Below, piece after piece: positions 4,172-51,646 of a stretch of DNA of 64,000 bases. The DNA is from a bacterium. GTDB taxonomy: Bacteria > Patescibacteriota > Patescibacteriia > 2-12-FULL-60-25. Position 1 is the stretch's first letter, and every line of letters starts with the position of its first letter. The notes beneath the pieces were generated by a model. It searched no databases and was not told where the DNA came from. It saw nothing but the letters and a program-made list of their open reading frames with translations. Made by a program: the position numbers and the translations under genes. Where the stretch lies: positions 310,625 through 374,624 of the forward strand of contig JAJYXM010000016.1 in the NCBI GenBank assembly GCA_021796435.1, written 5' to 3'.

Positions 4172-4289
4172 AATTCGTTCTCCGTAAATAAAGACTCTCG
4201 TTTTTACACGAAAGCCTTCTGAATGAACGGCTTAACCTTAGCCAGCGGGAGAAGCAGGGTCAAACAACGGTGTCAAGAGAAAGAGGGGT

Positions 4290-4380: not shown

Positions 4381-4421
4381 TTGAGGAGATGAAAAAAAGT
4401 TGAGGGGCTTTTGAGTATGTG

Positions 4422-18074: not shown

Positions 18075-18758
18075 TCAGTTTACGTAAGCTTCCATGATTG
18101 TCATTTGGCCATTTGGGTTGAGTTGATGTGTCAATTCAGGAAATTTTTTTCCTGATTGGATGGCATTGGCTAGATAATCAAGCGAGGACATACCGGGATA
18201 GGGAAGCAAGTTGTAGTTCGTGCTATTGTAAGATAAACCGCAAATTAATATCGGCAGTTCGTTTAGGATGTATTGCGCTGCCTGGTTTGTAGTGACCCCG
18301 TCGATCGGGGGTTGGTTTTCGTTGACGATAGAATCAATAATCGAGTGGAAAGTTGAGTTGTGGACGTAGTATCGATTAACGGCTTTGATTTTTTCCAGCA
18401 ACTTTTTGTCCAGAGCTTCATCCCAGCGGATTACGGTGATCCGTTTAAGATTTTTTGAAGGAAATTTATTGATGATTTTATAGATAGAACTGTTTAGGTC
18501 GGTGCCTTTGCGCAACGCAACATTGAGTGCACGAGCAGTCGAATACCCGTTGCGGTAGTGATAATTCAAGGCATGCAGACGGTCAGGAATCAGAATAAGG
18601 ATCCTGCCACAAGTGTATGCCAGTGCCCATTCTAAATAGCATAAGATGTTCTCAAGAGTGAAATATCTGTTTCCCAGGCTTATGCCGATGAGGATATTTT
18701 TTTCGTTAAGGTTTTGCGTTTGATTGAGTATCTTGCAGATGCGCATATTGGAAGCCAT
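18075..18758 (-). CDS. tRNA-dependent cyclodipeptide synthase (CDPS)
   Basis: ILIGISLGNRYFT matches the CDPS catalytic-Ser motif (AlbC ALIGISAGNSYFS, YvmC VLVGISPFNSRFS). QYILNELPIL matches the Y-x-L-x-E-x-P catalytic Tyr/Glu motif. A PYP triplet lies near the C-terminus. 227 aa. The gene sits in a distinctly AT-rich segment. Confidence 0.75.
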   Translation of the reverse strand: MASNMRICKILNQTQNLNEKNILIGISLGNRYFTLENILCYLEWALAYTCGRILILIPDRLHALNYHYRNGYSTARALNVALRKGTDLNSSIYKIINKFPSKNLKRITVIRWDEALDKKLLEKIKAVNRYYVHNSTFHSIIDSIVNENQPPIDGVTTNQAAQYILNELPILICGLSYNSTNYNLLPYPGMSSLDYLANAIQSGKKFPELTHQLNPNGQMTIMEAYVN

Positions 18759-33381: not shown

Positions 33382-33987
33382 ATGAATAATCCATTTTCGC
33401 GTAAAAATGCAGAAACTGGCGACAAGAAGGCAGCTGGTTTTACCGTAGGCCTGGTGATCGAGTTCGTGCAGGTATTGGCCATATCTTTGGCCATCATCAT
33501 TCCGGTGCGCTATTTCCTGATCCAACCGTTTTACGTGAAAGGCGCTTCGATGGAGCCGAGCTTCTGGGATCATGAATATCTGATCATCGACGAACTAAGC
33601 TATCGGTTCACTACCCCTGAACGCGGCGACATAGTCGTCTTCCGTTACCCCAACGATCCGAAGCAGTTCTTCATCAAACGCGTCATCGGATTGCCGGGCG
33701 AGACGGTGGAGATAGCCGGCGGACAGATCAAGATATACAACGACAAGAACCCCAACGGCGCGGTCTTGGACGAGACGTCGTATCTGGATCAGGACTATAC
33801 GACCATGACGCGGACCGTGACCCTGAAAGCGGATGAGTATTACGTCTTGGGCGACAACCGCATCGCAAGTTTGGATTCGCGTCTGTTCGGACCGATCAAG
33901 AAAGACGCGATTGTAGGACGCGTGTGGCTGCGCGGTTGGCCGCCGGAACGCTGGAAGGTGTTCGCCGAGCAGAACTACGCCCTCTAA
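33382..33987 (+). CDS. lepB: Signal peptidase I
   Basis: GASMEPSF catalytic Ser box, GLPGETVEI and GDNRIASLDSR boxes. Confidence 0.85.
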   Translation: MNNPFSRKNAETGDKKAAGFTVGLVIEFVQVLAISLAIIIPVRYFLIQPFYVKGASMEPSFWDHEYLIIDELSYRFTTPERGDIVVFRYPNDPKQFFIKRVIGLPGETVEIAGGQIKIYNDKNPNGAVLDETSYLDQDYTTMTRTVTLKADEYYVLGDNRIASLDSRLFGPIKKDAIVGRVWLRGWPPERWKVFAEQNYAL

Positions 33988-36150: not shown

Positions 36151-36186
36151 AAAACAAAAAACCCGGTCCGCCGGGTTTTTTGTTTG
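36151..36186 (+). terminator. Bidirectional rho-independent terminator after yqeY
   Basis: aaaaaa-cccgg-tccg-ccggg-tttttt. Confidence 0.8.
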
Positions 36187-36291: not shown

Positions 36292-36323
36292 TTTGTTTGT
36301 GCTTTTGTGGTGTATAATTAGCC
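36292..36323 (+). promoter_or_regulatory. Candidate promoter of the giant-protein locus (extended -10 TGgTGTATAAT; 18 nt to ATG)
   Basis: tgtggtgTATAATt at 36306-36319 and a weak -35. The very short leader has no SD. Confidence 0.4.
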
Positions 36324-36336
36324 CATAATACTCGCC

Positions 36337-38214
36337 ATGCAAAAAAATAGAGCGTTCCTCTTTTCATTTTTGAAAACTGCCACCGGACGGGTGCTGTTTT
36401 TCGCCCTCATAAGCGCCGTGGTCGTGACTCTCTTGCCGGTAGAAATCAGGGCACAGACTGACGTCGGGGTCAATAACGTCCAGCAGGTAGCGAATACGGC
36501 CGGCTTGGCTGGAGGGTCGGATTTGATAACCATCATCGGGAGGATAATCAACATCTTCTTAGGCTTCTTAGGGTTGGTGTTCTTGGTGTTGATGCTTTAC
36601 GCCGGATTCACCTGGATGACCGCGGCGGGTGATGCGGATAAGATCAAGAAAGCGCAGGGGACCATCCGTAATGCGATCATCGGTCTGGTCATCATAGCTT
36701 CGGCTTGGGCGATAACATCGTTCATCCTCGGCATTTTCGCAGGACAGGGTTTGGGCGGCATCGGTGGTGGAGGACCTAGCGGGCCGTTGGCGCCATTCTC
36801 TTCAGCGCCAGGTTCGGCTTGCTTGGGCAAGGGGATAATCGAGACGCATCTGCCGGACAGGAACTCTACCGGTATACCGAGGAATTCGCCGATTATCATA
36901 ACGTTCAAGGAGCCGATGAAGCCTGACACGATAATGAAGGGGTGGACGGATGCCACGAGCAATACCCAGATGGAATGGCCCTTGGAGGATAAGAACGTGC
37001 TCATCTATCGGACGGTGCAGGGTCAGGATGCGGCCATGGGATCGGACCAGATAAAGGTCAGATATACCAAGGATCTGAAGACGTTCGTCTTCAAACCGGC
37101 TGATTATTTGGGGAGCCCGACCGAGAAGATCGGCTATACCGTAGTTTTAAAAGGAAGCAAGAACGGTATCCTGAAGGCAGACGGTTCTCCTGCTCTGACT
37201 TGTTCACCGAACAATGAATATTCCTGGCAATTCGAGGTGTCGACAGTGCTTGATCTCACTCCGCCTTATGTGACTGCGGTCATCCCGCCGGCTGAAGGAC
37301 TATACGCGAGGAATATCATAGTGATGTTGAATTTCAATAAAGCCATGGATCCGACCGCGTCACAGGGTACGACGGCTGACGGTTTCCAGAATATCGAGAT
37401 TTTGGCTACGCCTAACGGGCAGACTGTAGGCATCCCGGTAACCGGAGAATTCAAGATCGTCAACCAGTACAGGACAGTCGAATTCGTGAGCGACGCGAAG
37501 TGCGGAACGAATTCATGCGGACGCGACGTCTATTGTTTGCCGGGCAATGCACAGATCCAAGTCAACGCCAAAGCTGGGACGTTGGATGGTCCAGGGCCGC
37601 AAGCCGTATTCACGACCAATGGTTATGACGGCTTGGTAAGCGTCGTCGGGAATTCTTTGGATGGCGACCACAACGACAAGGCGGAAGGTCCGCCGGGAGA
37701 TAATTATCAGTGGTCTTTCGGAACCTCGAATGACATCAAGCTATCACCGCCGGTGATCGTCAGCACGACGCCTGATTCAGACCCGAATACCGGTAAGAAT
37801 TCCAACGTATCATTGGACATGCCGATAACGGCGCTTTTCGATTCTTTCCTTCAGGCATCTACATTGAATTCGGATAACGTATACGTGGATGCCCATGGGA
37901 CTACCGAGCAACCGGATACTTTCTGGTGGACCGTCGGCATGAAGCTGGTCAAGAACGACGGGTCGGACATCGATACTACGACCGTACCGCCGGAAAAGCC
38001 GGAAGTCAGCGCGCTGACCATAGATCATCGGCCGTTCCAGCCGTCAGGAGTATTCCCGAACCTGAATTATTATGATCCATACATCACTTCCGGGGTGCAG
38101 GACGCTTATCAGAACTGTTTCGTACCGGCACGAAAATGCGGTGCAGGGAGCGGCGCCAATTGTTGCAAATTCCAACCCAACTCTGAAGTGTGCAAGAAAA
38201 TATTAAATCCATGA
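36337..38214 (+). CDS. Surface protein with signal peptide + TrbC/VirB2-pilin-like double-TM N-module, Gly linker and Ig-like domains
   Basis: The N-terminal 140 aa are about 55% identical to the N-terminus of the next gene. Hydrophobic helices IINIFLGFLGLVFLVLMLYAGFTWMTAAGD and NAIIGLVIIASAWAIT. TGA overlaps the ATG of the next gene (ATGA). Confidence 0.7.
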   Translation: MQKNRAFLFSFLKTATGRVLFFALISAVVVTLLPVEIRAQTDVGVNNVQQVANTAGLAGGSDLITIIGRIINIFLGFLGLVFLVLMLYAGFTWMTAAGDADKIKKAQGTIRNAIIGLVIIASAWAITSFILGIFAGQGLGGIGGGGPSGPLAPFSSAPGSACLGKGIIETHLPDRNSTGIPRNSPIIITFKEPMKPDTIMKGWTDATSNTQMEWPLEDKNVLIYRTVQGQDAAMGSDQIKVRYTKDLKTFVFKPADYLGSPTEKIGYTVVLKGSKNGILKADGSPALTCSPNNEYSWQFEVSTVLDLTPPYVTAVIPPAEGLYARNIIVMLNFNKAMDPTASQGTTADGFQNIEILATPNGQTVGIPVTGEFKIVNQYRTVEFVSDAKCGTNSCGRDVYCLPGNAQIQVNAKAGTLDGPGPQAVFTTNGYDGLVSVVGNSLDGDHNDKAEGPPGDNYQWSFGTSNDIKLSPPVIVSTTPDSDPNTGKNSNVSLDMPITALFDSFLQASTLNSDNVYVDAHGTTEQPDTFWWTVGMKLVKNDGSDIDTTTVPPEKPEVSALTIDHRPFQPSGVFPNLNYYDPYITSGVQDAYQNCFVPARKCGAGSGANCCKFQPNSEVCKKILNP

Positions 38215-41200
38215 AGGTACGTAACATTTTCGCCATAGCGTCTATCGGACTCGGCCTGGCGGCGGGTACGATGTTTCTGTCGGCCCACGCCGTACGAGCA
38301 CAGGTCGATACGGGGTTGCAGCAGGTGGGGCAGACGGTGAAGCTTTCAGGGACTGACCCGCGCACTATAGCCGCGAACATCATCAATATCGCGTTGGGCT
38401 TGGTGGGTATCGTGCTCGTCGGTCTGATACTTTACGGTGGCTTCCTGTACATGACGTCGGCCGGTGACAGCGCCAAAGTGGATAAAGCCAGGAAAGTCAT
38501 CACCAACGCCATAATCGGTCTGGTCATAGTGTTGTCGGCTTGGGCCATCACCAGATACGTAATAGATAAGTTGTTGCAGGCGACGCAGGAAGGCGGAGGC
38601 GTCGGTGGAGGTGCTAGCTCTGGTTATGTCGGAGGGTTCGGCAGCGGAACGGGCGGCAGCAGCTTCAGGATAGTCTCGATCACTCCGCAAGGCAGCCAGC
38701 CTGGGAAGCCAAGGAATACCGTAGTCAAGATCCTTTTGACCAAGGCCGTGGATGAAGCGACAGCTTCTGCCGTTACCGTGGTCAAAGATGGCGGTACGAC
38801 CGTCGGAGGCACTATTGCGGTTCAAGGGACGCTTGTGACGTTTACGCCGGTACAAGCCTGTCCTTCGCCGAACGAAACACGTAAATGTTTCGACGCCGAT
38901 TCGGCCTTTACGATTAAAGTCGGGACAAGCCTGAAATCAGCTCAAGGACAGCCGATCGCTTGCGGCGGTTTTGCACCAGCATGCGAAGCGCATTTCACTA
39001 CAGGCAATCTGGTCGACGTTTCGGGCCCGAACGTGTCTTTGACCTTCCCGACGGACGGCATGTCGATCCAGCAGAATTATTATTCGGATGTCTTGGCTCA
39101 TGCGACAGACGATAGCGGCGTCGCAATCGTGCAATTTTTGGATGGCGCCGATGAGATCGGCAGCGACGGACCGAGTTCGGCGGATACGCCACTAAGTTTC
39201 GATGCCAAGATTTTTTGGGATACGGCTGGAGCTGCTTTAGGCGTGCATACCTTGACCGCAAAGGCGTTGGATTTGGATACGAACACGACGCAAAGCCAGA
39301 GCGTTTCGGTCGTCGTACGCCCGGAACATTGTTTCAACGGTAAACAGGATCAGGATGAGACTGGCATAGACTGTGGTGGTGATCCGAACAGCACGGATTT
39401 CTGTGGCGTATGCAGCGGTGGTTCGTGTACCAGTAATAGCCAATGTTCTTCGGGTTTTTGCCAAGGCGGGGTGTGTATCGAGAAGCCTGTGATCAAGTCA
39501 GTTTCTCCGTTGAACGGCAAGCCGGGTACTTTCGTCTCCATCGCGGGTACTAATTTCGGAACTAATCCGGGTACGGTCGTTTTCTTAGGTGACCCGAACA
39601 ATCCAGCCGACGATAAAATCGCAGTCGCGCCACAAGCCTGTGTCAATGCAGGAAGCCAAACATGGAGCAATACGCAGGCGATAGTTTCTTTGCCGGACGG
39701 TGCAGCTTCAGGGCCGATAGAAATCAAGAATGCTTCCAGCTCGTTGACCGACAGGACGGATCAAGATCCTGGGCCGGCAGTCGCAGATTTCGTCGTGGAT
39801 AATACGGAACATCCTGGGCTTTGTGCTTTGGATCCAGCGTCCGATAGCGTTGGCAAAAACGTGAAAGCTATAGGACAGGGTTTTGGAAATTCGCAGGGCA
39901 AGGTCATATTCGGTTCCCTGGACCAGCAACTGGCGGGATCACCGTGGTCTGACGCTAACGTCACATTCAAGGTTCCGGTCGTCAACAACGGGCCGTATCA
40001 GGTCTGGGTCCAGACAGGCGCAGGCACAAGTAATCCGGCACAGTTCGTGGTGACGGAAAAGAGCCTCGAAGCGGCTCCTGAATTGGATAGCCTCGATCCG
40101 ACGCAAGGCCCATTGCAGCAATATGTGACGCTGTATGGCAGGAATTTCGGATATAACGTAGGAACGGTGATTTTTTCCGCACAGGATGGTACCGAGGCGA
40201 TCGGTGACACGAGTTTTCCGGCTGCTTGCAGCGCAGGTTTCTGGTTGGATGACACGATCGTAGTCAAAGTCCCTTCGGTCTTCAAGAACGGTCAGGGATT
40301 GATCGACGGCACCTATCAGGTCAGGGTAAAACGTTCCGATAATAAGGAATCGGCCTCGTTGCCTTTCAATGTCAATAAATCCTTACCTCTCAAGCCAGGT
40401 ATCTGTGCCATCAGTCCCGCAGTCGGACCCGTGGGAACGGACGTGAAGATCTACGGTGAACGTTTCGGCTTCGACAAACCGTTGGTGTCTTTCAGCACGA
40501 GCAAGCAGGCTTTGGTGCAATCCAATACGAACCAGGAGGTGCAGACTTCGGTCCCGAATAATTCGATCACCGGTCCGGTGACGGTCACGAGCAATGCCGT
40601 CATCTCTAATGGTTTCAATTTCCAGGTCAGGAATTGCAATGAAGCCCCTGAAATCTGCGGACCGGTCGATAAGTTCCAATGTTGCCAGACTGGGGAGTGT
40701 CGACCAGCGGGACAGTCTTGCGCCGTTGCACCGACCGAATCCGAATATGCCTGGCAACTTTCCACAGGACTGATTCCGTTGGCGCCATACGTCATCGAAG
40801 AATGCCGTCCGGACATCACTCCAGCGCCGACTCCTTCACCATCTCCATGGAGTGGTAGAGCTGGTGGGGACCAGGCGCCGACCGATGCGGCGATAACGAT
40901 GCGTTTTTCGCAGCAGCTCGAAATGAGCACGGTCACCAAACAAGCTTTCCATATATACGCCTGCAAAGGCGCCTCGGCCGATCCTTGCGATACGAAGGAA
41001 GCAATCCAGGATTTCACCATGCACTTGACCCACGAGAACAATCAGCAGGATTTGGTGACGTTGAATCCGAGCGCGAAGTTCGCGACCAATACCACATATC
41101 TGGTGACCATCTCGACAGACATAAAGGGCGCAGGCGAGACAGGGGCCAACATGATCGAGAACAAGGCCTGCGGCAAAGGCCAGAACAATGAGACTTATGG

Positions 41201-44200
41201 CTATTGTTTCAGGTTCAAGACGCGTGCTTCGGAAGAGCCGTCACAAGTCGGTTCGGTCGGCGTCGTTCCATCCAGCTATACCTTCAAGGAGACCGGAGTC
41301 TACATCGGCTACGAAGCCGTACCGACGGATGCACAAGATAAATGCATCGTCCTGGATTGCCAGCAGTTCAACTGGAATTGGCATGCCGGAGATACGCGCG
41401 GGTCGATCACCAACATGACCGGCGGACAATTCAATTACGGCCTGTGCAACCAGCAAGGGACGGGAAATTTCGAGACGGGTAACGTACCGGTGGACATACT
41501 TTCCGATCTGGCCGGCACCAGCCTCACGGGACAAGGCGAGATGTTCGTGAATTTCGTGCCGCCCCGCGTCGAGGAATATGCGCCGAAGTGCGACGAGGCG
41601 TGCAGCAATGCTTTGATCTGGGCCAGGTTCTCGGCCAAGCTCGATGCAGCTTCGGCCTTGACCCCGAACAACATCAAATTGCAGAAGTGTTATAACGAAA
41701 ATTGTTTCGAATCGGAATTGGGCCAGCCTATCGCCATCACGATGAACCTTAAGGACGATACGACGATCGAGATTTCGCATGCACCACTCGAAGCCGGAGG
41801 ATTCTATCGTCTTTTCCTGCGTGGCGGACCTAACGCCATAAATCCTGCCACACTGGAGAATAACGGAATCCAGGGCCTGAACGGCGTGCCGATGACGGGA
41901 ACCAACCATCCGGAAGGGTTTTTCTGGAAATTCCGTGTGTTGCAAGGGACCGCAGCTTTCTGCAAGGCGGAACGCGTAGACCTCAAACCTTTGGAGAAAT
42001 ACGAGACGAACGTCGATGCACGTCAGCTTTTCGAGGCGACGCCGTATAGCCCGCCGGATAAGTGCAGCTCTGATGGCCAGCAGTTGGTGAACCAGGGGGA
42101 TACACAATGGGCATCAGGCGATATCACGGTCGCGGATTTCTACAGACAGGCACAGTCTCTAATCAAGTCCGATAAGACGAAGCTGCCTGCAGGCTGTTCG
42201 TCAAAATGCTTAGCCATGGGAGCTGGCGGGTTGTTCGGCAAGGTCGCGATGTGCGGTAACGGCATCATAGAGACGACTGACGCGAATTATTGCGTAGGTG
42301 GAAAGACTCCCCGAGGTAGCGCATGTAAGCTCATGCCGGCTGGCGCGAAAGCAGGCGAGGAATGTGAGCCGACGATAGACGGTTTGGATAAGTGCGATGT
42401 CGCTACATGCTTGTTCCGTTCCGTGGCAGCTGTCAATCAGGGAGGCACTTGTGGTGACGGTACGGTGCAGGCCGCCGCTGGTGAAGCGTGTGATTACGGC
42501 CCGACATGCGTAGGCGGCAGTACAGCGACCAGCTCTACGCCTGTGCCTGAATATGCTTCATGTCCGGATGCGACGACCAAACAAGCTTGTGAAAACGCCG
42601 GAGGAGTATGCGCGATGCATGATTACCGCGGATGCTCGGCGAATTGTCGGCATACCGGAGCCAAGTCGGGCAAGACGACTTGCGGTAACGGAGATTTCCA
42701 CGGCGACGGAAAAGATTGCGATGACGGCAACGTGGCTAACGGCGATGGATGCAGTTCGGATTGTCTACACGAGCCGTCACAGCCATCTACCGTTTTAGCG
42801 GCGGTGTGCGGTAACGGTATTTTGGAAAAAGGCGAGACATGCGAAGCCACTATGGTGAACGGGAGCCCGGTTTTCGCTCCGGGATGCGACAGCAGTTCGT
42901 GTCTGCATACAGGTACCTTATCCTGCATGCCGGGTCAGAACCTCAGTTGCTGCGGTAATGCGGTGCTTGATCCAGGAGAGGACTGCGACGACGGCAACAC
43001 CGCCTCAAAAGACGGATGCAGCTCGAGTTGTCTGTTGGAAGGTTCATCAGCCTATTATTCCGCCGTACCTTCCGGTATCGCGCCGAGTTTCTGCGGCAAC
43101 GGTTATCTGGAGAAGGGCGAACAGTGCGAGGTGGGCGCTTCATCCGACAGTATCGCTAAATTGGTTTACGCAGGCCTGCCGAAGGACGCTGCCTTGGCAT
43201 GGTCGCCGGTCTTGAACAAGAGTTTCGCTAACATCCAAAGCGGCATCGACCCCATACAGTTGGCCAAAATAATCGGCGAAAAAGAACCCGATCCAGCGAC
43301 CGGAAGATCATCTTCCGAATTGAGCGCGGTGATGCTGGAACAGACGGGTAAAGCGACGTATGGCCTGCAGTGCGGCTATAACGACGAAGCGAATTGCACT
43401 CCGGATGACCTGTCTAACCCGCGCGGTCTGGATGATTTCGGTTGCTGCCGACTGCGTCCGATCGTGGCCAAGGCTTATCCGCCACCGCCGCCATTCGAGG
43501 CTTGCCGTAATGTCCAGATCCAGATCGAATTCAATCAGGCGATGGATACGGTATCGGTGACCAATAATTTCGAGATTTCTGAAGGTCCTGATGCAGCGAA
43601 CAAATGTCCGGACGGTACGCAGGAAGTCGTGTTGAACACTGATAATCAGCCGGGTTTCTGGAATTTCCTGAAACGCATTTGGCGCTCGATCGTCGCTTGG
43701 ATCTTTAAGCAGCCCGCCATAGCCGAGAAGTGGTGCGTAGGCAAAGTCACGGGACAACTCACCGCAGCCGATCAGCAATCGCAGGCGACTAAATTCATCT
43801 ACACTTTGGATCATGCCCTGGATGCCGGAAAGCTTTATCGTATCAGGTTGAAAGGCGACGATGATCTGACCGACAACGCTGACAAGAACGCACGGCATGG
43901 CATCAAGACGGCGGCTGGCGTGGTGCATGATGGCGACATCACATGGAACTTCAAGACGGGCAACCAAATCTGCGCCTTGAACACCGTCACGATATACGAT
44001 GTGACGCAGGATCCGCCGGACGAGAAGCATCCTTTCCTATACGTGAACAAAGGCAACAAGTCTGAAGAGAGGCATTTCGAGGCAGAGGCGCAATCACTGC
44101 AGAACGGCACGGCGATACCGCTTTCGACGACAGCTGAATACCAGTGGGATTGGCACGTCTGGACGACGAGCGATCCGGATTTGGTTAATTATAGCCCGAA

Positions 44201-47200
44201 TTATCCGATCCAACCGCCGACCTACAAAGGACATTTCGTTTCGGTGGTCGAGGGTAGCGCGCAAAAGAACGGGCACGCGATACTGACGGCCGGCATCAAA
44301 GTCGTCCACGACGAAGTTAACGTCCCGTCATCCACGGGTTCGGTAATACAAGGCGTGGCACATGTCGCGGTCTTGGCTTGCGAGAACCCATGGCCATCGC
44401 TGCAGACTTCTCCGTTCAGCGACACCAAGACTTGGTTGAACGACCGTTGGGCCGATCTGCCTGATTCAAGGCCTAACATCTTCATCGGCAACGATCCGTA
44501 TATCGGCAAACCGGTCTTCTACAATTTCTCCACCATGTATTGTCGCGATGCGGGCGTGGAGCATGACCAGACCGACGATCTGCCGGAACTCGTGATAAAC
44601 CAGGTGCCGCGAACCGCAGTGGACAAAGCAAACGGCATCTTGCGTCAATACCTTTTGACCTTCAAGGACGATGCCTTGAAGAAGGATGGTATCGGTATCC
44701 GTGTCGCCGAGAATCCGCAGCATCTGTCGGCTTTGGAGTGGTACTACTCGAAGGGCTTCGCAGGCAAACCGAAAGTGCTTAGCGTAGACGGATATCCGGC
44801 GGTCCAAGACGGCAATACGTTATATGTCGATGCCGCCAACCAACCCGAAACGAACGAATCGATATATTCGAACATCTATGTCTTCTCCTTGAATCCGGAT
44901 GCTCAGCAGGTGACGCAGGACATATTCAAACAGCTGGTCCAATATCTGGCTTTCAACGTCAACATCGTCGGTCAGAGCAATACCTGCCATATAGCAACGG
45001 GCGCGAACCAATACACGAATACCGACATCTACACCGACAGTCAGGGAGTACCGAAACGCTGCACCGCAGATTGGGAGTGTGCACCTTTGGATTCCTCGAG
45101 CAATCTGTTCTGCGATTCCAATAAGGCCAAGATGGCACGTGACACGCAGCGCATGGCTGATTTCCAGGCCATCAACAAACGGTTGCTGGAGACGCGAGAT
45201 GCGCAGGGCAGATATCTGCAGCTCCAGACCGGAACGTACCTTAAAGGATTGACGACCTCATTGTGGCCGTCATGGACGGATGAATTCGGGAAGGCCTTGG
45301 GCACCATGCCGGTTGATCCGATCGATAGGTTCTTGACTTGTGGAGAGTGCACTGACGGGAGTGTGTGCCAGACGGATAAGGACTGCGGGGAAAACGGCAA
45401 GTGCATGGGTAAACGTTTCGAGAACGGCGAATGGGTGGACGCACCGGATCTGGATCCGCAGACCTGTTGGAACTCTAAAGCGTTCACCTATACCTGTCCG
45501 GCTTATAAGACCGGCAATCCGTTCTCGGTCTCGCGTCTGTACCAGTACCGCTCCTTGGCCGGAGGCACACAGTATGAATTGGCTTCGGAGTTCGAAGTCC
45601 AACCAATGACATTGAACCAGAAAGACTGGTGGTACCCGGCATTGCCGAGCACCATGTACCAGTGCGTGAATCCAGGAGCGGTCGGCAGATATTGCAATGA
45701 CGGCAACGGCAATCCATCAGATGCCCTATGCCGTATATGCGCGAATCCAGCCAGCTGCAAACAGTGCAAGACGAGCGGTGCGGATTGCACGACTAACGCG
45801 GCAGTCTGTGCTGCGCCGGATACGTGCGTGGATGTAGCTTCGATCCCCGCGTCCTGTCGGCCTTTCGGGGGTACGTTCAAATATGCCGGAGTCTGCACCA
45901 ATCAAGCTTATGCCGAGAACGGGACTTGCGGAGACAAGGTCCTCAACAATAACGAACTATGTGAATTAGGCGACACAAAGTCCGAAACCTGTACCGTGAA
46001 CGGTAAGCCGGGACATCGCCAGCTGGCATGTAATGCGTGCACCAAGTTCGATGTGGATCCGCAGAGACCGCAGTGCGTGGAGGATTCGGTTTGTGGCAAT
46101 GGCCGTATAGATAAGGTTTGCGCCGGAAGTACGGTTTCGTGTTTAAGTAATGCTGACTGTACGGGAGGCGTGCTCTGCATCAATAATGAAGCATGCGATG
46201 ATGGGGTGGATAACGGTAAATACGGTCATTGCAACGCGACGTGTCAGGGCTATGCGGGGTTCTGTGGAGATGGTCAGCTTTCGCCAGGTGAAGTCTGTGA
46301 TAAGGGTGTGAACAATGGCCAGTGGAGCAACGCTTATAATGCAGCTACCTGTGCGACGAACTGCAAAGGCGTGGGTCCGTATTGCGGCGATGAGGAGATC
46401 AACGGCTCGGAAGAGTGTGACGGCGGTGCCCAGACGACGCAGGCTGCTTTCTGCATAAACGCCAACCCACCGACGCTTTGTGATACGAATGCCGATTGCC
46501 CGCAAGGTAAATTATGCGCGGGTAAAGCGGTCGCTCGTCTAGACGCAAAATCTTCCCGGACGTTAGCGTTCGTCCGTGGGAAGTTGGGTGAGGCTTGGTT
46601 GAATTATGTGTTGGTACCGGCGGTCCAGGCTGCACCTCCGCCACCCCAGCAACAGAATAGTTCCAACATAAATTCGGTCGTCTACACTAAGTTAAATATC
46701 TGGACCACTAACACCATCAAACCCGGTAAACTCAGCGGCGGGTTGCAGTTCATTCCTGCTATCCCTGGCGGTGGAGGCGGAGGACAACAGACGACGCAAT
46801 ATGTCGATGTCAACGGCAATAAGATAAACGTCACAGCGTTCAATTCATGCGAGGGTGTGTATGTCGTGGATTCAAACGGAATCAAGCGCGAGACGCAGCA
46901 CGTGAGGAACTGCAATGCTCCTGGCGCCACCAACTCCTGTAAGTGGAGCGACTGGACCGGTTGTGTCCCGGTCGGCATCTGTGGCGACGGCATCAAGGAC
47001 CTTAACGAAGCTTGCGATAATGGAGCAAATAACGGCGATACAAAAGCGTGCACCTCGCAGTGCAAGGTCAATACTTGCGGCGACGGTCTGTTGAATGTCG
47101 GGGTAGAGGAATGCGATTCAGGTGCGCAGAACGGCCAAGTGACCTGTAACGCCGACTATGATTCGTCCTGCCTATCGTGCAGCAATCTGTGCAAGTTCAT

Positions 47201-48839
47201 GGCTTCGGCTGGAGGATATTGCGGCGACGGGGTAAAGAACGGTCCGGAACAATGCGACGGCACTCAAGGCCTGACTGTAGGGAATTCTCCGGTGACATGT
47301 TCGATGTTGGGCTATGATTACGGAGTGAACGCGAACAATAATGCGACTTGTGCTTCGGATTGCAATTACGGCGGTTGCAAGCGTTGTTCGGACGAGCCAG
47401 GCGACGGAGTGATAGAGGGAAGGGTGTATGATGCGGTTTTCCAGCAGGTCGTCCCGAACGCACGTGTCAGCCTGATGTATAAAGGTGCGAAAGTGGAAGA
47501 GGCTTTCACGGATCAGGACGGCAAATATAAATTCGTCGACCTAAATAAAAATTCCGCCTGTACGAGCTACAGAATCGTCATCGACATGTATCAGGATAAC
47601 GTATGTACAGGCCAAGACCATGCTGGTTTCAATTGCTTCAGCGTCGGTGTCAGTCCATGGGTCTATCCGTATGCTCTGGATGAAGGGGCGAATGGAGGAT
47701 ATTTCTCTTTCACCACAGACCTTTTCAGCTTCAGTACCTATAAGAGCGTGTTGAACGGTGAAGATTTCGACTCGGTGCCTCATATCGACATATTCCCGCG
47801 TCCTGAAAGAGGCCGTGCATATATGGCTATGACATGGAAGCCGACCGGAGGGACCATAGGTTACAAGGCTCATACGATATTGCCTGATGTAAGCGCCTAT
47901 AAGGTCGTAGATTTTGATGGCGGAGATACGACCATGTCGTGCGATTACGCTACGCGTCCGACTGCCGACGGAAAGGCTTGTGCACGAGATATAAACTGGC
48001 GTGCCTGGGGCTCGTGGCAGATCGATACCTTGCCATATACCCGAATGATATGTCTAAGGCGTGTAGGTGAATTGACTTCTGGATGGTCGAGCTCGGCTTC
48101 GAACGGCTGTCCATTCGAAGGCGTGACGAGCTGTCTGCAGAGGGCGGGTAAGACACTCAGCAGCTGCGGGTGTACTGTCGATGCAGATGGCAAGAAAGTG
48201 ACGTGCACAAGCACAAACTCGGCCTGTTTGGCCTGTGGGGCTGACGTGAGCCATTCGTGCAATAAGGATGCCCACTTCGCTGACTGTGCTAACCCTGTGA
48301 CATATGGACCGATCACCGTTTTGACTAACTATACTGCCCTGATGAACCAGAGCGAGGACATCAAGTTCTACTTCAGCGCCGGTCCGGGCGATGCGGCATC
48401 GTTCAAATCAGCGATGTCGAATACCTCAAAGGGCTATAAGGCTTATACGGCCATAACTGATTTGTCTGGCGCATCGGAGCTGCAAGTGATCGAAAAGCCA
48501 TCAGATTCGGGTTGGTTCTGGGAAATCGCTCACTTACAGCCGAAGCAACAAAAGGTCGTCAAGATAGATAAATTAGCCGGTAGCGACAATGACATGGCTA
48601 CGACAATGCAGAATACTCCGACGTCCAATAAACCGAGTTATCTTGATGGTTGGGGAGCTTGGTCGCTGTTCTTCCAAGCCGGTGGGAAAAATTATTGCGT
48701 AAGCACGACCGATAACACGAAACTTCATCCGACCATCGGCCCATGCTATTGGGATACTCCTAAACAGATTTGTGCACAGACGGCGGGCTATCACTGTGCA
48801 GACGTGGATCCCACGACTTATTACAAATATAACTGGTGA
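38211..48839 (+). CDS. Giant (about 3,542 aa) cell-surface protein: pilin-like N-module, Ig-like domains, IPT/TIG domains, about 25 cysteine-rich CGDG/CGNG...CDDGN repeats, carboxypeptidase-regulatory-like domain, Cys/Trp-rich C-terminal domain
   Basis: Single uninterrupted ORF. IPT/TIG signatures (PVIKSVSPLNGKPGTFVSIAGTNFG; PELDSLDPTQGPLQQYVTLYGRNFG; PGICAISPAVGPVGTDVKIYGERFG). Repeats such as CGNGILEKGETCE, CDDGNVANGDGCSSDC and CGDGLLNVGVEECDSG, like the Myxococcus cysteine-rich repeat. CarbopepD-reg-like GRVYDAVFQQVVPNARVSL...TDQDGKYKF. Confidence 0.8.
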   Translation: MKVRNIFAIASIGLGLAAGTMFLSAHAVRAQVDTGLQQVGQTVKLSGTDPRTIAANIINIALGLVGIVLVGLILYGGFLYMTSAGDSAKVDKARKVITNAIIGLVIVLSAWAITRYVIDKLLQATQEGGGVGGGASSGYVGGFGSGTGGSSFRIVSITPQGSQPGKPRNTVVKILLTKAVDEATASAVTVVKDGGTTVGGTIAVQGTLVTFTPVQACPSPNETRKCFDADSAFTIKVGTSLKSAQGQPIACGGFAPACEAHFTTGNLVDVSGPNVSLTFPTDGMSIQQNYYSDVLAHATDDSGVAIVQFLDGADEIGSDGPSSADTPLSFDAKIFWDTAGAALGVHTLTAKALDLDTNTTQSQSVSVVVRPEHCFNGKQDQDETGIDCGGDPNSTDFCGVCSGGSCTSNSQCSSGFCQGGVCIEKPVIKSVSPLNGKPGTFVSIAGTNFGTNPGTVVFLGDPNNPADDKIAVAPQACVNAGSQTWSNTQAIVSLPDGAASGPIEIKNASSSLTDRTDQDPGPAVADFVVDNTEHPGLCALDPASDSVGKNVKAIGQGFGNSQGKVIFGSLDQQLAGSPWSDANVTFKVPVVNNGPYQVWVQTGAGTSNPAQFVVTEKSLEAAPELDSLDPTQGPLQQYVTLYGRNFGYNVGTVIFSAQDGTEAIGDTSFPAACSAGFWLDDTIVVKVPSVFKNGQGLIDGTYQVRVKRSDNKESASLPFNVNKSLPLKPGICAISPAVGPVGTDVKIYGERFGFDKPLVSFSTSKQALVQSNTNQEVQTSVPNNSITGPVTVTSNAVISNGFNFQVRNCNEAPEICGPVDKFQCCQTGECRPAGQSCAVAPTESEYAWQLSTGLIPLAPYVIEECRPDITPAPTPSPSPWSGRAGGDQAPTDAAITMRFSQQLEMSTVTKQAFHIYACKGASADPCDTKEAIQDFTMHLTHENNQQDLVTLNPSAKFATNTTYLVTISTDIKGAGETGANMIENKACGKGQNNETYGYCFRFKTRASEEPSQVGSVGVVPSSYTFKETGVYIGYEAVPTDAQDKCIVLDCQQFNWNWHAGDTRGSITNMTGGQFNYGLCNQQGTGNFETGNVPVDILSDLAGTSLTGQGEMFVNFVPPRVEEYAPKCDEACSNALIWARFSAKLDAASALTPNNIKLQKCYNENCFESELGQPIAITMNLKDDTTIEISHAPLEAGGFYRLFLRGGPNAINPATLENNGIQGLNGVPMTGTNHPEGFFWKFRVLQGTAAFCKAERVDLKPLEKYETNVDARQLFEATPYSPPDKCSSDGQQLVNQGDTQWASGDITVADFYRQAQSLIKSDKTKLPAGCSSKCLAMGAGGLFGKVAMCGNGIIETTDANYCVGGKTPRGSACKLMPAGAKAGEECEPTIDGLDKCDVATCLFRSVAAVNQGGTCGDGTVQAAAGEACDYGPTCVGGSTATSSTPVPEYASCPDATTKQACENAGGVCAMHDYRGCSANCRHTGAKSGKTTCGNGDFHGDGKDCDDGNVANGDGCSSDCLHEPSQPSTVLAAVCGNGILEKGETCEATMVNGSPVFAPGCDSSSCLHTGTLSCMPGQNLSCCGNAVLDPGEDCDDGNTASKDGCSSSCLLEGSSAYYSAVPSGIAPSFCGNGYLEKGEQCEVGASSDSIAKLVYAGLPKDAALAWSPVLNKSFANIQSGIDPIQLAKIIGEKEPDPATGRSSSELSAVMLEQTGKATYGLQCGYNDEANCTPDDLSNPRGLDDFGCCRLRPIVAKAYPPPPPFEACRNVQIQIEFNQAMDTVSVTNNFEISEGPDAANKCPDGTQEVVLNTDNQPGFWNFLKRIWRSIVAWIFKQPAIAEKWCVGKVTGQLTAADQQSQATKFIYTLDHALDAGKLYRIRLKGDDDLTDNADKNARHGIKTAAGVVHDGDITWNFKTGNQICALNTVTIYDVTQDPPDEKHPFLYVNKGNKSEERHFEAEAQSLQNGTAIPLSTTAEYQWDWHVWTTSDPDLVNYSPNYPIQPPTYKGHFVSVVEGSAQKNGHAILTAGIKVVHDEVNVPSSTGSVIQGVAHVAVLACENPWPSLQTSPFSDTKTWLNDRWADLPDSRPNIFIGNDPYIGKPVFYNFSTMYCRDAGVEHDQTDDLPELVINQVPRTAVDKANGILRQYLLTFKDDALKKDGIGIRVAENPQHLSALEWYYSKGFAGKPKVLSVDGYPAVQDGNTLYVDAANQPETNESIYSNIYVFSLNPDAQQVTQDIFKQLVQYLAFNVNIVGQSNTCHIATGANQYTNTDIYTDSQGVPKRCTADWECAPLDSSSNLFCDSNKAKMARDTQRMADFQAINKRLLETRDAQGRYLQLQTGTYLKGLTTSLWPSWTDEFGKALGTMPVDPIDRFLTCGECTDGSVCQTDKDCGENGKCMGKRFENGEWVDAPDLDPQTCWNSKAFTYTCPAYKTGNPFSVSRLYQYRSLAGGTQYELASEFEVQPMTLNQKDWWYPALPSTMYQCVNPGAVGRYCNDGNGNPSDALCRICANPASCKQCKTSGADCTTNAAVCAAPDTCVDVASIPASCRPFGGTFKYAGVCTNQAYAENGTCGDKVLNNNELCELGDTKSETCTVNGKPGHRQLACNACTKFDVDPQRPQCVEDSVCGNGRIDKVCAGSTVSCLSNADCTGGVLCINNEACDDGVDNGKYGHCNATCQGYAGFCGDGQLSPGEVCDKGVNNGQWSNAYNAATCATNCKGVGPYCGDEEINGSEECDGGAQTTQAAFCINANPPTLCDTNADCPQGKLCAGKAVARLDAKSSRTLAFVRGKLGEAWLNYVLVPAVQAAPPPPQQQNSSNINSVVYTKLNIWTTNTIKPGKLSGGLQFIPAIPGGGGGGQQTTQYVDVNGNKINVTAFNSCEGVYVVDSNGIKRETQHVRNCNAPGATNSCKWSDWTGCVPVGICGDGIKDLNEACDNGANNGDTKACTSQCKVNTCGDGLLNVGVEECDSGAQNGQVTCNADYDSSCLSCSNLCKFMASAGGYCGDGVKNGPEQCDGTQGLTVGNSPVTCSMLGYDYGVNANNNATCASDCNYGGCKRCSDEPGDGVIEGRVYDAVFQQVVPNARVSLMYKGAKVEEAFTDQDGKYKFVDLNKNSACTSYRIVIDMYQDNVCTGQDHAGFNCFSVGVSPWVYPYALDEGANGGYFSFTTDLFSFSTYKSVLNGEDFDSVPHIDIFPRPERGRAYMAMTWKPTGGTIGYKAHTILPDVSAYKVVDFDGGDTTMSCDYATRPTADGKACARDINWRAWGSWQIDTLPYTRMICLRRVGELTSGWSSSASNGCPFEGVTSCLQRAGKTLSSCGCTVDADGKKVTCTSTNSACLACGADVSHSCNKDAHFADCANPVTYGPITVLTNYTALMNQSEDIKFYFSAGPGDAASFKSAMSNTSKGYKAYTAITDLSGASELQVIEKPSDSGWFWEIAHLQPKQQKVVKIDKLAGSDNDMATTMQNTPTSNKPSYLDGWGAWSLFFQAGGKNYCVSTTDNTKLHPTIGPCYWDTPKQICAQTAGYHCADVDPTTYYKYNW

Positions 48840-49141
48840 TTATGGAGAAGAAAGCGCTGATATTCTATGTCGCGGTGACTTTGGTCGGTTTGGGGATCAT
48901 GGCTGGTTTGGTGCTGTACTTGAGGAGCCGTAATGCACCTAACGTAATACCGGTAGCAATACAAAGCACGACATCGACTGCGGCAGTACAAAATCTTACA
49001 GGCAATCAGACCAACTCAAAAGTGAGATATGCAGTGCCGTTGGATAAAATCCCTAAGGCTGAATCATACAAACCAGGGGACCCCATAAACGAACAATTAC
49101 CCACACTAACAATTTCGCCAGACGGTCAATTAGATCAATAA
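48836..49141 (+). CDS. Small single-TM membrane protein
   Basis: GTG/ATG start overlapping the giant gene stop; TM FYVAVTLVGLGIMAGLVLYL. Confidence 0.4.
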   Translation: MIMEKKALIFYVAVTLVGLGIMAGLVLYLRSRNAPNVIPVAIQSTTSTAAVQNLTGNQTNSKVRYAVPLDKIPKAESYKPGDPINEQLPTLTISPDGQLDQ

Positions 49142-49146
49142 TCACT

Positions 49147-50205
49147 ATGTTCGACAACGTACCCCCGAATCTGCCGGTAGAACCGGCCAATCAGACGCCG
49201 CCACCTCCGCCACCTACGCCCTCCGGCAATCAACCGAAACCGATCGTCGTCGGGCAACCCAAGAAAGAACCCGAGGATATCTTTTCGGACATCAATGTGG
49301 GCGGTGACGACATACAGACCGCACCATCTAGTCAGGATATCTACAGCGCACCGAAGAAGTCGGCTTTGCCTTTGGCCGCCGTGATAGTCGTTGCGATTAT
49401 CGTGTTAGGGGGAATAGCTTTTGCAGTATGGTATTTCCTGTTGCGGCAGGAGAGCGTCCCGGCTCCTGCCTCGAATACGACGCAGACTACACAGCCTGCG
49501 CCTGTCCAGCAGCAGCCGGAGATCGTCGAACAGCCTCCTGTGACGGCGAATGAGGTGACGACCGTGCCCCCGGCAGGTACGAATATCCCCTTGCCGGAAC
49601 AGACGGAGCAACCTACGACCACCGAAAACATGCCCGCCGAAGCGTCGACGGAACCGGCTGTGCCACCTCCGCCAGCAGCGGTGATTACGGAAGGTGTAGA
49701 TTCCGATAGCGATGGGCTGACTGATGTGGAGGAGGCGTTACTCGGGACAAACCCACAACTTGCCGATACTGATGGTGACGGATACAGCGACGGCAGCGAA
49801 GTGATGAACCTATACAGCCCTTTGGCGGCGAACCAGCCTTTATCCGCAGACCCAAGCTTCAGTCCAGCGACTTGGGAAGCGAAGTCGCCGCTTAACAGCT
49901 ATACTTGGACGTTTTTGCGGCCTAAGGCATGGCTCCTTAACGGAGAGTCGGTGATGCAAGCTGTACTTTCGACCGATACGTCTGCACGATTCGTCTTCAG
50001 CCTAGCTACGAAAGCGGATATCCCGCCTGGCGCCACTTTCAAGACGAAATCCGGTTTGGATGCCGTAAGGACAGAAGATCGTCTGACCACGTATGTCTAT
50101 TCGGGTGACGCCGTCATAGCTGTGACCTATGATCCGAATGGAGCGGCGACTTATGAGTATAGAACGTTATACGACGAACTGGTGAACTCGCTGCATCTGC
50201 AATGA
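49147..50205 (+). CDS. Membrane-anchored surface protein with Pro-rich linker, TSP3/dockerin-like Ca-binding motif and a C-terminal domain shared with the next gene
   Basis: TM LPLAAVIVVAIIVLGGIAFAVWYFLL; DSDSDGLTDVEEALLGTNPQLADTDGDGYSDGSEV; C-terminus ...YEYRTLYDELVNSLHLQ. Confidence 0.5.
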   Translation: MFDNVPPNLPVEPANQTPPPPPPTPSGNQPKPIVVGQPKKEPEDIFSDINVGGDDIQTAPSSQDIYSAPKKSALPLAAVIVVAIIVLGGIAFAVWYFLLRQESVPAPASNTTQTTQPAPVQQQPEIVEQPPVTANEVTTVPPAGTNIPLPEQTEQPTTTENMPAEASTEPAVPPPPAAVITEGVDSDSDGLTDVEEALLGTNPQLADTDGDGYSDGSEVMNLYSPLAANQPLSADPSFSPATWEAKSPLNSYTWTFLRPKAWLLNGESVMQAVLSTDTSARFVFSLATKADIPPGATFKTKSGLDAVRTEDRLTTYVYSGDAVIAVTYDPNGAATYEYRTLYDELVNSLHLQ

Positions 50206-50290: not shown

Positions 50291-51646
50291 ATGCCTGAAG
50301 AACAGATGAAACAAAACACGGCTGCAGCTGCAGAACCGGAAATAGTAGTCATACCGGAGAAGTACTACGGTGCTGCTTTGCGAGCTAAGGCTCCTGAGAT
50401 GGCGCCTATGCCTCAGCAGACATTGGAGAAACCCAAGAAGAGCCATGTTTTGCCTATCGTGATCGTTGTCGTCGTCCTGTTGATAGGTGCCGCCGCCGCT
50501 TTCGTCTATCTCAATCAGGAGTTGTTTTTCCCCAAGCCAGCGCCTACGCCGCAACCCGTCGTCGAGACGCCGGTCGAACCGACACCTGTGCCGCCTCCCG
50601 CCGCTCCGCTCAACCTAGCGGCTACATCGACTAATCCGCAGAGCGTCGCGATATCCTGGACCGATAATTCGGATAACGAATCAGGTTTCCGTCTGGAGCG
50701 TGCTGAAGGCACTGGCCCATTCTTCGCTTTGACCAATCTTCCGCCGAACAGCAGTTCTTTCCTGGATGTTTCGGTCAAAGCAGACACGACATATCGTTAT
50801 CGTGTATTCGCCTCTAACCAGTCTGGAGATTCCGCTCCATCAAACGAGTCCACGGCGCAAGTCCCACCATTACCGCCGGCGCCACCTGAACAGCAGAAGC
50901 TGCCACCGGCAGGTCTGGACAGCGACTCTGATGGTCTGACTGATCTGGAGGAGGACCTATTCAAGACGAACAAGAACAATCCAGACACCGACGGAGACGG
51001 ATTCTTGGACGGCAATGAGGTATTCCATCTGTACAACCCGAATGGTCAGGCGCCAGCCCGTCTGATTGACGCCGGTCTGGTCAAGGAGGTCAAGGGAAGC
51101 GTGGGTTGGACGATGCAGATACCGAGCGTCTGGAACATGAGGTTAGATAAGACTGACGGCACTGCTGCCACGATCGATAGCGGGCATGGCGAGACCTTCA
51201 TCCTCACCATACAGGATAATCCGAACAGGTTACCGATAATCGATTGGTATCTCGAGAAGAATCCTGATGTGCAACGCAGCGAAATATTGGTCTACAGGTC
51301 CAAGCAGGGTTATGACGGAATCATCGGTAAAGACCTATTGACTACGTACATACCCTGGGAAGATAAAGTCTTCGTATTCAAGTACGATATCGACGGCCAG
51401 CAGTACATAAACTATCGGACGACATATTCGATGATGTTGAATTCCCTCATCCTGCAGGGTATGCCGCAGGTTTCTCCGCCGGTAGCAGGGACACCGTTGC
51501 CTTTCGAACCAGCCGCTACGACCACAGGGGTCGTAAACCAGCCACAAGCCGTCGATGTATTCCCTTCGCCCGGAGAACAGACGCCCCTTGAGGGAACAGA
51601 GGGTCTGACGGCTACCACTACAGAGACGGTAAATCCAGCGCCATGA
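50291..51646 (+). CDS. Membrane-anchored surface protein, paralog of 49147-50205, with fibronectin type III domain
   Basis: TM VLPIVIVVVVLLIGAAAAFVYL; FN3-like PLNLAATSTNPQSVAISWTDNS...TTYRYRVFASN; DSDSDGLTDLEEDLFKTNKNNPDTDGDGFLDGNEV; C-terminus ...YINYRTTYSMMLNSLILQ. Confidence 0.55.
   Translation: MPEEQMKQNTAAAAEPEIVVIPEKYYGAALRAKAPEMAPMPQQTLEKPKKSHVLPIVIVVVVLLIGAAAAFVYLNQELFFPKPAPTPQPVVETPVEPTPVPPPAAPLNLAATSTNPQSVAISWTDNSDNESGFRLERAEGTGPFFALTNLPPNSSSFLDVSVKADTTYRYRVFASNQSGDSAPSNESTAQVPPLPPAPPEQQKLPPAGLDSDSDGLTDLEEDLFKTNKNNPDTDGDGFLDGNEVFHLYNPNGQAPARLIDAGLVKEVKGSVGWTMQIPSVWNMRLDKTDGTAATIDSGHGETFILTIQDNPNRLPIIDWYLEKNPDVQRSEILVYRSKQGYDGIIGKDLLTTYIPWEDKVFVFKYDIDGQQYINYRTTYSMMLNSLILQGMPQVSPPVAGTPLPFEPAATTTGVVNQPQAVDVFPSPGEQTPLEGTEGLTATTTETVNPAP

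Follow-up and report, generated by a model that had tools for sequence, protein, structure and literature searches.

The 64,000-nucleotide stretch of DNA analysed here, referred to as the window, belongs to a bacterium of the Patescibacteriota (assembly GCA_021796435.1, contig JAJYXM010000016.1, positions 310,625 to 374,624 of the forward strand) and carries two adjacent genes, designated S and G, whose products are very probably surface proteins held by a pilin-derived hairpin. The open reading frame (ORF) of S (ORF1, 36337-38214) encodes 625 amino acids (aa), comprising a signal peptide, a VirB2-like pilin hairpin, a Gly-rich linker, a β-sandwich ectodomain with Big_5 Ig-like domains, and a conserved Cys-rich knob at the C-terminus. 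The product of G (ORF2, 38211-48839) has 3,542 aa and begins with the same series of signal peptide, VirB2-like pilin hairpin and Gly-rich linker, followed by an ectodomain of ~3,380 aa; both genes, and all of their parts described below, lie on the plus strand. The start codon of ORF2 (ATG) shares bases with the stop codon of ORF1 (TGA) in the sequence ccATGAagg (ATGA at 38211-38214), and this start/stop overlap suggests that the two genes are translationally coupled, as had been proposed in a preceding annotation made from the sequence alone (the original prediction). S and G probably form a co-expressed pair of cell-surface proteins in a monoderm Patescibacterium (Uhrbacteria-type). Upstream of the pair and directly 3′ of yqeY, a palindromic hairpin without strand assignment (36152-36185), with a perfect 15-bp stem flanked by A6 and T6, is likely to act as a bidirectional intrinsic terminator that parts the pair from the preceding genes. 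A perfect TATAAT (36313-36318, plus strand), read by eye 19 nt 5′ of the ORF1 ATG, is a candidate -10 element; a sigma-70 consensus scan of the 150 nt upstream of ORF1 found no promoter, and neither a convincing -35 element nor a Shine-Dalgarno sequence was seen upstream of ORF1.

The N-terminal regions of the two proteins are built alike. The signal peptide of ORF1 (aa 1-39, 36337-36453) has a predicted cleavage site between A39 and Q40 after EIRA, at least 90% conserved across the family, and that of ORF2 (aa 1-30, 38211-38300) would be cut between A30 and Q31 after AVRA, in agreement with the cut before Q (VRA↓Q) that had been anticipated. The pilin module of ORF1 (aa 61-133, 36517-36735) consists of a pre-helix segment DLxTIIGRIINI, helix 1, the basic loop WMTAAGD..K.KKA and helix 2, and the module of ORF2 (aa 47-119, 38349-38567) comprises the GTDPRTIAANIINI motif, helix 1, the loop MTSAGDSAKVDKARK and helix 2. 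By hydropathy, exactly two hydrophobic segments follow the signal peptide in each protein (70-88 and 113-131 in ORF1, 57-75 and 96-118 in ORF2), the loop between them has a net charge of +2, and no further transmembrane (TM) segment was found over the full length of either protein. Sequence identity between the N-modules is 53% over 95 aa (blastp E 1e-28), or 48.6% over 107 aa, close to the ~55% over ~110 residues given by the original prediction, whose description of two hydrophobic helices separated by a short charged turn is likewise borne out. Outside the N-modules the two proteins share no similarity, and a hidden Markov model (HMM) built from both modules revealed no third copy in any frame of the 64-kb window. 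In the AlphaFold2 (AF2) model of the module, helices span residues 50-81 and 87-128 with a predicted local distance difference test (pLDDT) score of ~90, after which the chain passes into a disordered linker.

Beyond the hairpin, the Gly-rich flexible linker of ORF1 (aa 134-163, 36736-36825) has pLDDT values <50 for aa 137-153 and is conserved in composition, not in sequence; that of ORF2 covers ~aa 125-160 (38583-38690). The full-length AF2 model of ORF1 has a mean pLDDT of 86, with >90 in the ectodomain and <50 in the linker, and the folds of its ectodomain resemble CopC-type Ig sandwiches, S-layer SbsC domains, macroglobulin MG domains and the Ig-like domains of L,D-transpeptidases. These folds mark ORF1 as a surface protein of structural or adhesive type and give no hint of enzymatic activity. 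The ectodomain of ORF2 starts with the Ig-like domains Big_5 (aa 152-264) and Big_7 (aa 273-350), together at 38664-39260, and continues with an array of four IPT/TIG domains (~aa 426-800, 39486-40610), beyond which the listed domain order places one more Big_5 domain. Cys-rich stretches lie at ~aa 1400-1650 and 2600-3000, the best-scoring Cys-rich acidic repeat (TIGR02232 myxo_disulf_rpt / DUF4215) is found at 42924-43043, and the protein contains 164 Cys in total. Towards the C-terminus, a CarboxypepD_reg-like β-sandwich (aa 3068-3113, 47412-47549) scores below the Pfam cutoff; the C-terminal 430 aa past it match no family, and phmmer searches of aa 1751-2650 and aa 3101-3542 against the PDB returned nothing significant. 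All of the components named by the original prediction, that is, the Gly-rich linker, the Ig-like and IPT/TIG domains and the Cys-rich repeats, are thus present according to Pfam and NCBIfam profiles. A separate peculiarity of ORF2 is a lineage-specific Pro/Gln/Gly-rich insertion at aa ~2801-2900 (window 46611-46910; ..AAPPPPQQQNSS..GGGGGGQQ..), which shows 66% gaps and 9% identity in 44 aligned orthologues, two thirds of which lack it.

The identity of the hairpin was assessed with family profiles. The Pfam family PF18895 (T4SS_pilin; 71 model positions, gathering threshold 26.6 bits) matches ORF1 with 37.6 bits (aa 64-130, profile positions 5-71 of 71) and ORF2 with 46.5 bits (aa 51-117), and the NCBIfam model NF045849 (Mbov_0395/MMCAP2_0565 pilin-like conjugal transfer protein; cutoff 40) gives 40.7 for ORF1 and 33.6 for ORF2. 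The TrbC profile PF04956 matched neither the full proteins nor the isolated modules at E ≤ 0.1. The TrbC/VirB2-type assignment of the original prediction is supported, by PF18895 among the other comparisons described below; a direct match to PF04956 was not obtained. When the ORF2 module alone served as the query, 45 proteins were retrieved, all but one of which (a partial sequence) carry PF18895; these relatives measure 83-235 aa, nearly all of them being stand-alone proteins of 100-235 aa, and three also match PF04956. Between the module and stand-alone PF18895 pilins, phmmer E-values range from 1e-12 to 1e-46, with alignments over the whole module. The correspondence runs from end to end, through the signal peptide, a variable stretch, the D-P/L-x-T-I..IIN segment, helix 1, the loop and helix 2, and includes a shared loop (W/Y)MT(S/A)(A/G)G(D/N)..K(V/I).KAK and a shared helix 2 NAIIGLVI..SA(W/Y)AI. 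The S and G fusions diverge from the stand-alone pilins precisely at the C-terminal end of the latter. On the strength of these sequence matches, membership of the module in the PF18895 family can be taken as established.

Since PF04956 did not match the window proteins, a profile-profile comparison with plasmid VirB2/TrbC proteins was performed. The reference set comprised six annotated VirB2/TrbC genes of conjugative plasmids of the mating-pair formation class MPF_T, each located between a VirB1-like or other upstream gene of a type IV secretion system (T4SS) and virB3. A diverse alignment of the module (A1) was matched to this set by hhalign with 92.8% probability (E 4e-7) over 64 columns spanning both helices, a score of the kind that hydrophobic profiles can inflate. 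The alignment brings the AxA↓Q cleavage context and the GTDP(R/A)T(I/M)..NI motif of the module and of VirB2/TrbC into register, and a remote homology between the PF18895 family and canonical VirB2 is thus well supported.

Two other identities were considered and rejected. A type IV pilin or pseudopilin is not indicated, as a regular-expression search of both N-termini found no G↓(F/M)xxxE motif and the signal peptides are of the classical AxA type. Sortase substrates were dismissed as well: the only related motifs are the internal IPVTG and VPMTG (aa 366 and 1226), and the C-termini are hydrophilic and free of TM segments.

The profile of the module matches 96,513 clusters (clustering at 50% identity). 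Its top scorers are "poly-pilin" proteins with 2-17 tandem hairpins (P0166, P0170, P0180, P0222), the longest array being that of P0170, with 17 hairpin modules in 1,775 aa. With one signal peptide apiece, at the N-terminus, and uninterrupted linkers, P0166 and P0170 are judged from their sequences to be true tandem fusions, and merged gene calls were rejected as the source of such proteins on the same grounds; no published description of tandem poly-pilin proteins was found.

The arrangement in the window is widespread among related genomes. A search with full-length ORF1 returned >500 clusters of 570-695 aa, all but one of which carry PF18895 and Big_5 among their precomputed matches. These relatives belong to the Patescibacteria, the named ones mostly to Uhrbacteria, and are labelled by NCBI as "pilin", "Ig-like domain-containing protein" or, for one orthologue, "MMCAP2_0565 family pilin-like conjugal transfer protein"; the InterPro and NCBI pipelines thus already assign the automatic label "pilin" to some members. 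With the ORF1-family alignment, a relative of ORF1 was detected in at least 583 species-representative genomes, one genome being scanned per species. For 80 loci, whose ORF1 relatives are 34%-82% identical to ORF1, the gene order was analysed: a giant pilin-headed G directly follows S in 74, and the other six end at contig edges. Complete giant ORFs (n = 35) have a median length of ~3,300 aa, and a search with a 1,000-aa N-terminal query of ORF2 yielded mostly fragments at contig ends. As the same layout recurs in 74 of 80 related loci, the S-G arrangement is far beyond chance. The prediction that the module would be fused to long ORFs in relatives was thus confirmed, and every orthologous locus examined keeps the module.

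Variation within this layout is limited. A stand-alone pilin of 125-170 aa lies between S and G in seven of the 80 loci (L030, L040, L042, L044, L048, L051 and L073), and a separately retrieved locus, L004, shows the same S-pilin-G order, with the pilin at 4123-4560 (107 aa according to the gene caller; 145 aa, with a signal peptide, for the ORF from ATG). From their sequences, such loci constitute small three-member pilin arrays. Of the 64 two-gene loci, 27 retain the ATGA overlap, and 52 have a potential G start ≤20 nt from the S stop. Upstream, the genes lepB (64 of 82 loci), hisS (68 of 82) and yqeY (74 of 82) recur; given this conserved lepB-hisS-yqeY synteny, the cassette is a vertically inherited chromosomal feature of the lineage and not mobile DNA, and an origin from a mobile element was rejected. 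In the window, lepB, which encodes signal peptidase I (33382-33987), is located 2.3 kb 5′ of the pair, and relatives show the order lepB-hisS-S21-like-yqeY-S-G; its position may reflect mere synteny or a link to processing at AxA↓Q. Many metagenome-assembled genome (MAG) records with the cassette (L008, L009, L012, L015 and others) are titled "uncultured Gammaproteobacteria bacterium", evidently placeholder mislabels.

Within both proteins, the hairpin is the most conserved part. Mean pairwise identity in the ORF1 family is 0.69 for the pilin core, 0.54 for the ectodomain and 0.30 for the signal peptide, and among 44 ORF2 orthologues it amounts to 0.56 in the core against 0.33 overall. In 120 ORF1 sequences, M94 and G98 of the inter-helix loop and G116 of helix 2 are invariant, and T95 of the loop is at least 90% conserved in the family. 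The S and G modules form two paralogous lineages, the nearest neighbour being of the same type in 131 of 154 cases. Modules of S and G from the same genome are nevertheless more alike than those from different genomes (identity 0.474 vs 0.410; permutation p ≤ 2e-4), with a genome's own partner at a median rank of 7th of 67. This within-genome likeness of the sequences indicates either co-adaptation or gene conversion.

VirB2-like pilins of Patescibacteria are already known. A survey of 3,035 Patescibacteria assemblies found VirB4 in 2,417, VirB2-like pilins in 1,948, with proximity to virB4 in 1,135, and 441 pilin arrays of 2-11 genes each, and it detected neither PrgB of the MPF_FATA class nor other adhesins in Patescibacteria (Quinonero-Coronel et al. 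2025, PMC12102498). In Southlakia, the pilin array and the T4SS are essential (Wang et al. 2023 Cell, PMC10633639). The described pilins and arrays (PMC10633639; PMC12102498) resemble S and G in their Sec signal peptide, two helices, MT(S/A)(A/G)G(D/N)..K.KA loop and phylum, and their tandem module genes recall the S-G (74/80) and S-pilin-G (7/80 and L004) layouts. They differ in being stand-alone proteins of 100-150 aa that have a mean identity of 25% within arrays and are often encoded near virB4, whereas S and G measure 625 and 3,542 aa, their modules are 53% identical in the window and 47% on average within genomes, the cores of ORF1 orthologues are 69% identical, and the genes occupy a housekeeping locus with no T4SS gene found in the 64-kb window. 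Six accessions of family members did not occur in the portion of the PMC12102498 supplement text that was available. Full-text searches, with incomplete coverage of the literature, found no paper on a VirB2-like pilin fused to a giant ectodomain, so that this fusion is apparently undescribed, in line with the original prediction that it corresponds to no described system. As a separate observation on stand-alone arrays, a SBP_bac_1/SBP_bac_8 gene directly precedes arrays of 6-7 stand-alone PF18895 pilins at two unrelated metagenomic loci, L092 (1007-5370) and a locus of JGI 3300072015, and this association of a gene for an extracellular solute-binding protein with pilin arrays may be recurrent.

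Other systems share individual traits with the pair. Canonical TrbC/VirB2 proteins (PF04956; Ti VirB2, RP4 TrbC) have the AxA↓Q cut, the GTDPxT..NI pre-helix motif, the hairpin and the length of the mature module in common with S and G, which differ in their longer basic inter-helix loop, the lack of virB neighbours in the window, the monoderm host and the missing direct match to PF04956; the giant C-terminal extension also rules out head-to-tail cyclisation of S and G unless the extension is cleaved. The mycoplasma pilin-like proteins of integrative and conjugative elements (ICEs) described by NF045849, an 80-position model whose cutoff ORF1 barely exceeds and ORF2 does not reach, belong to the same family of hairpins in monoderm cells that lack a wall; they are small and ICE-borne, whereas the window locus is chromosomal and vertically inherited. 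Bulky adhesive subunits are mounted on filaments in several systems, namely VirB5, TraC and CagL on T4SS pili and TcpB, CofB and GspK-type minor pilins on type IV filaments. This logic is similar to that proposed for S and G, for which a filament is hypothetical. VirB5, however, bears no resemblance to pilins, and the minor pilins of type IV filaments differ in fold and carry a class III signal peptide, which S and G lack. PrgB/aggregation substance and giant LPXTG adhesins are, like S and G, large multi-Ig surface proteins of monoderms, and they provide cell-cell contact for a T4SS; their anchor is a C-terminal sortase/LPXTG signal, in contrast to the N-terminal hairpin of S and G, which have neither a C-terminal LPXTG nor a C-terminal TM segment.

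In the mechanism proposed here, the Sec pathway would export S and G, and signal peptidase I would cleave them at AxA↓Q. Going by hydrophobicity and the positive-inside rule, the VirB2-like hairpin would lie in the cytoplasmic membrane with both its N- and its C-terminus outside and the basic loop on the cytoplasmic side; the flexible Gly-rich tether would then lead from the end of helix 2 to the extracellular Ig-like, IPT/TIG and disulfide-rich domains (~460 aa in S, ~3,380 aa in G). Acting as a specific assembly module, the hairpin would insert S and G next to each other into a pilin-based structure, which could be either a membrane platform shared with the stand-alone VirB2-like pilins of the cell or the distal end of a VirB2-type pilus after extraction by a T4SS. 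The ectodomains would form a long surface fibre or an adhesin for contact with host cells. In this scheme, the topology, processing, assembly partner and adhesive function are those that we infer for S and G from sequence features. VirB2 and TraA pilins have the same hairpin topology, and in the structures of the F- and T-pilus both ends of each subunit are exposed on the outside of the filament. Because pilin termini face outward, a single bulky C-terminal fusion would be sterically possible at the end of a pilus; by this analogy, the C-terminal fusion is compatible with anchoring in the membrane and, sterically, with a position at the pilus end.

That the hairpin serves as a specific module docking S and G into a pilin-based structure, be it a platform or a pilus end, is in our judgement about as probable as its negation. 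The hairpin would be more than a passive anchor because it is the most conserved part of the proteins, because S and G resemble each other within genomes, and because their tight coupling is conserved and a pilin is intercalated in some loci. The stricter version, in which S and G are true pilus subunits extracted by a T4SS and located at the distal end of a conjugative-type pilus with covalent adhesins of 460 aa and 3,400 aa, we consider unlikely; the stand-alone pilin found between S and G in some genomes would then possibly join in. Several observations weigh against docking into a pilin-based structure. Since a 3,400-aa fusion cannot fill every position of a helical pilus, a place at the tip or the base is at most conceivable. 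Homologues of VirB4, VirB6 and VirD4 had been suggested as a search target, and Pfam scans of the large ORFs in the 64-kb window found no gene for VirB4, VirB6, VirB3 or a coupling protein; no such gene appeared in the flanks of those loci whose gene tables were inspected, and the closest stand-alone pilins that were looked up are located in arrays or alone, with no recognisable VirB4 nearby. As no T4SS genes occur in the window or in the inspected flanks, it is the family assignment and the literature that connect S and G with a T4SS, and we know of no PF18895 protein that has been experimentally shown to form a pilus. Besides the missing PF04956 match, fold searches with the module, the structural check proposed at the outset, gave no pilin-specific match, a result without discriminating power, given that the module is no more than a simple hairpin of helices. 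The restricted alphabet of TM segments inflates identity values, and the within-genome similarity of S and G could, as far as the sequences go, stem from gene conversion or lineage-specific composition and not from physical interaction. Finally, the ectodomains are conserved orthologues, ~33% identical over 3,000 aa, which suits a structural coat as well as an adhesin.

The main rival account, to which we assign somewhat better odds than to true pilus subunits, though still well short of even, holds that an abundant pilin gene supplied no more than an N-terminal two-helix anchor. In that case S and G would assemble into an S-layer-like coat or into surface fibrils with no need of a T4SS or a pilus, and their kinship with pilins would be a matter of history alone. 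Such a role would agree with the placement of the cassette among housekeeping genes (lepB-hisS-yqeY on one side; ybeY, dgkA, ftsA and ftsZ on the other), with no T4SS neighbour and a position stable in 64-74 of 82 loci, and with ectodomains that are not hypervariable. The plasticity of the module, which occurs as 6-17 tandem hairpins behind a single signal peptide, also makes an ordinary polytopic membrane element possible. A generic anchor, however, need not conserve its polar loop (M94 and G98 invariant, T95 at least 90%) and the pre-helix D-L/P-x-T-I more strongly than the ectodomain, and the co-variation of S and G hairpins within genomes, the pilin intercalated in seven of 80 loci and in L004, and the conserved tight translational coupling all argue against a purely passive role.

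Processing within the linker would lead to yet another outcome, in which the ectodomain is released to the wall or the medium and an ordinary pilin of ~90 aa is left behind. The end of the module coincides with that of stand-alone pilins, the linker is disordered and conserved in composition, and the C-termini of RP4 TrbC and Ti VirB2 are processed or trimmed before cyclisation, which offers a parallel. Such a pro-protein is nonetheless improbable: no conserved protease motif is visible in the linker, the cassette holds no dedicated peptidase gene (the lepB 2.3 kb upstream encodes the housekeeping signal peptidase), a 3,542-aa precursor for one pilin would be costly, and the released ectodomains would have no other retention signal. 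Far less credible still is the view that the module is a generic signal-anchor hairpin whose profile matches are an artefact of hydrophobic composition. It could draw on the absence of a direct PF04956 match and on the lack of any match when the module alignment was used as a profile against PDB sequences. At the sequence level this explanation is largely refuted by PF18895 scores 11-20 bits over the curated cutoff, by E-values down to 1e-46 to stand-alone PF18895 proteins with conserved polar motifs, by the 96,513 clusters that match the module profile, by the hhalign comparison with VirB2, in which the two helices line up along with the cleavage site and the GTDP motif, and by close relatives, some of which match both PF18895 and PF04956.

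The S-G fusion is therefore real, widespread and apparently undescribed, with a function that we infer. The conservation of the pair in hundreds of related species suggests that surface or attachment proteins can be mounted in a manner not described so far. Patescibacteria make up much of bacterial diversity, and the majority are believed to depend on a life attached to other cells; T4SS and VirB2-like pilins are essential in the one genetically tractable species. The S-G pair is a testable candidate for the missing link between pilins and adhesins in this group. Should S and G prove to reside at a pilus tip, they would represent the first conjugative-type pilin fused directly to an adhesin, would functionally replace VirB5 and PrgB, and would explain how the T4SS pili of Patescibacteria engage their hosts. 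If the hairpin acts only as an anchor, it would constitute a new N-terminal anchoring device for giant surface proteins of monoderms. In either case, the VirB2-type hairpin emerges as a modular building block that occurs alone, in tandem up to 17 times, or fused to ectodomains of 3,400 aa, which lies outside the textbook view of conjugative pilins as obligately small.

Three further genes for membrane proteins follow G on the plus strand. ORF3 (48842-49141), 99 aa from its ATG, encodes a single-pass membrane protein and starts 3 nt past the ORF2 stop, so that, going by this spacing, it probably belongs to the same operon; no homologue of it was found in related loci. ORF4 (49147-50205), which begins 5 nt past the ORF3 stop, encodes 352 aa with a Pro-rich N-terminus, one TM segment, a bacterial TSP3 repeat of the calcium-binding type and a C-terminal domain. 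Its paralogue ORF5 (50291-51646; 451 aa) has one TM segment, an fn3 domain and the same C-terminal domain. A DSDSDGLTD stretch is common to ORF4 and ORF5 and scores as TSP3 only in ORF4, Pfam reporting only fn3 in ORF5. Because ORF4 homologues lie downstream of the giant gene in at least 10 related loci, the proteins encoded by ORF3-ORF5 may be part of the same apparatus as S and G. A secreted-looking protein elsewhere in the window (10932-11984, plus strand) combines CARDB/Ig-like domains with TSP3 repeats, a repeat chemistry like that of ORF4 and ORF5.

The remainder of the window is dominated by housekeeping functions, including thyX, tmk, the genes for ribosomal proteins L1, L11 and L25, nusG, gyrB, ftsW, a murA-like gene, prmC, a sigma factor, lepB and hisS. 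Also present are ybeY, dgkA, ftsA and ftsZ, which lie downstream of the cassette, together with nrdR, htrA, pyk, a PPDK/PEP-synthase-type gene and a few secreted proteins. A 227-aa ORF on the minus strand (18075-18758) matches the cyclodipeptide synthase family PF16715 with 36.9 bits against a threshold of 27 and, on this match, would be an unexpected enzyme of secondary-metabolite type for a reduced genome. The ThyX (Thy1) protein encoded at 2609-4171 (minus strand) has 520 aa, about twice the usual length, with two matched domain stretches, and may be a tandem-duplicated flavin-dependent thymidylate synthase.

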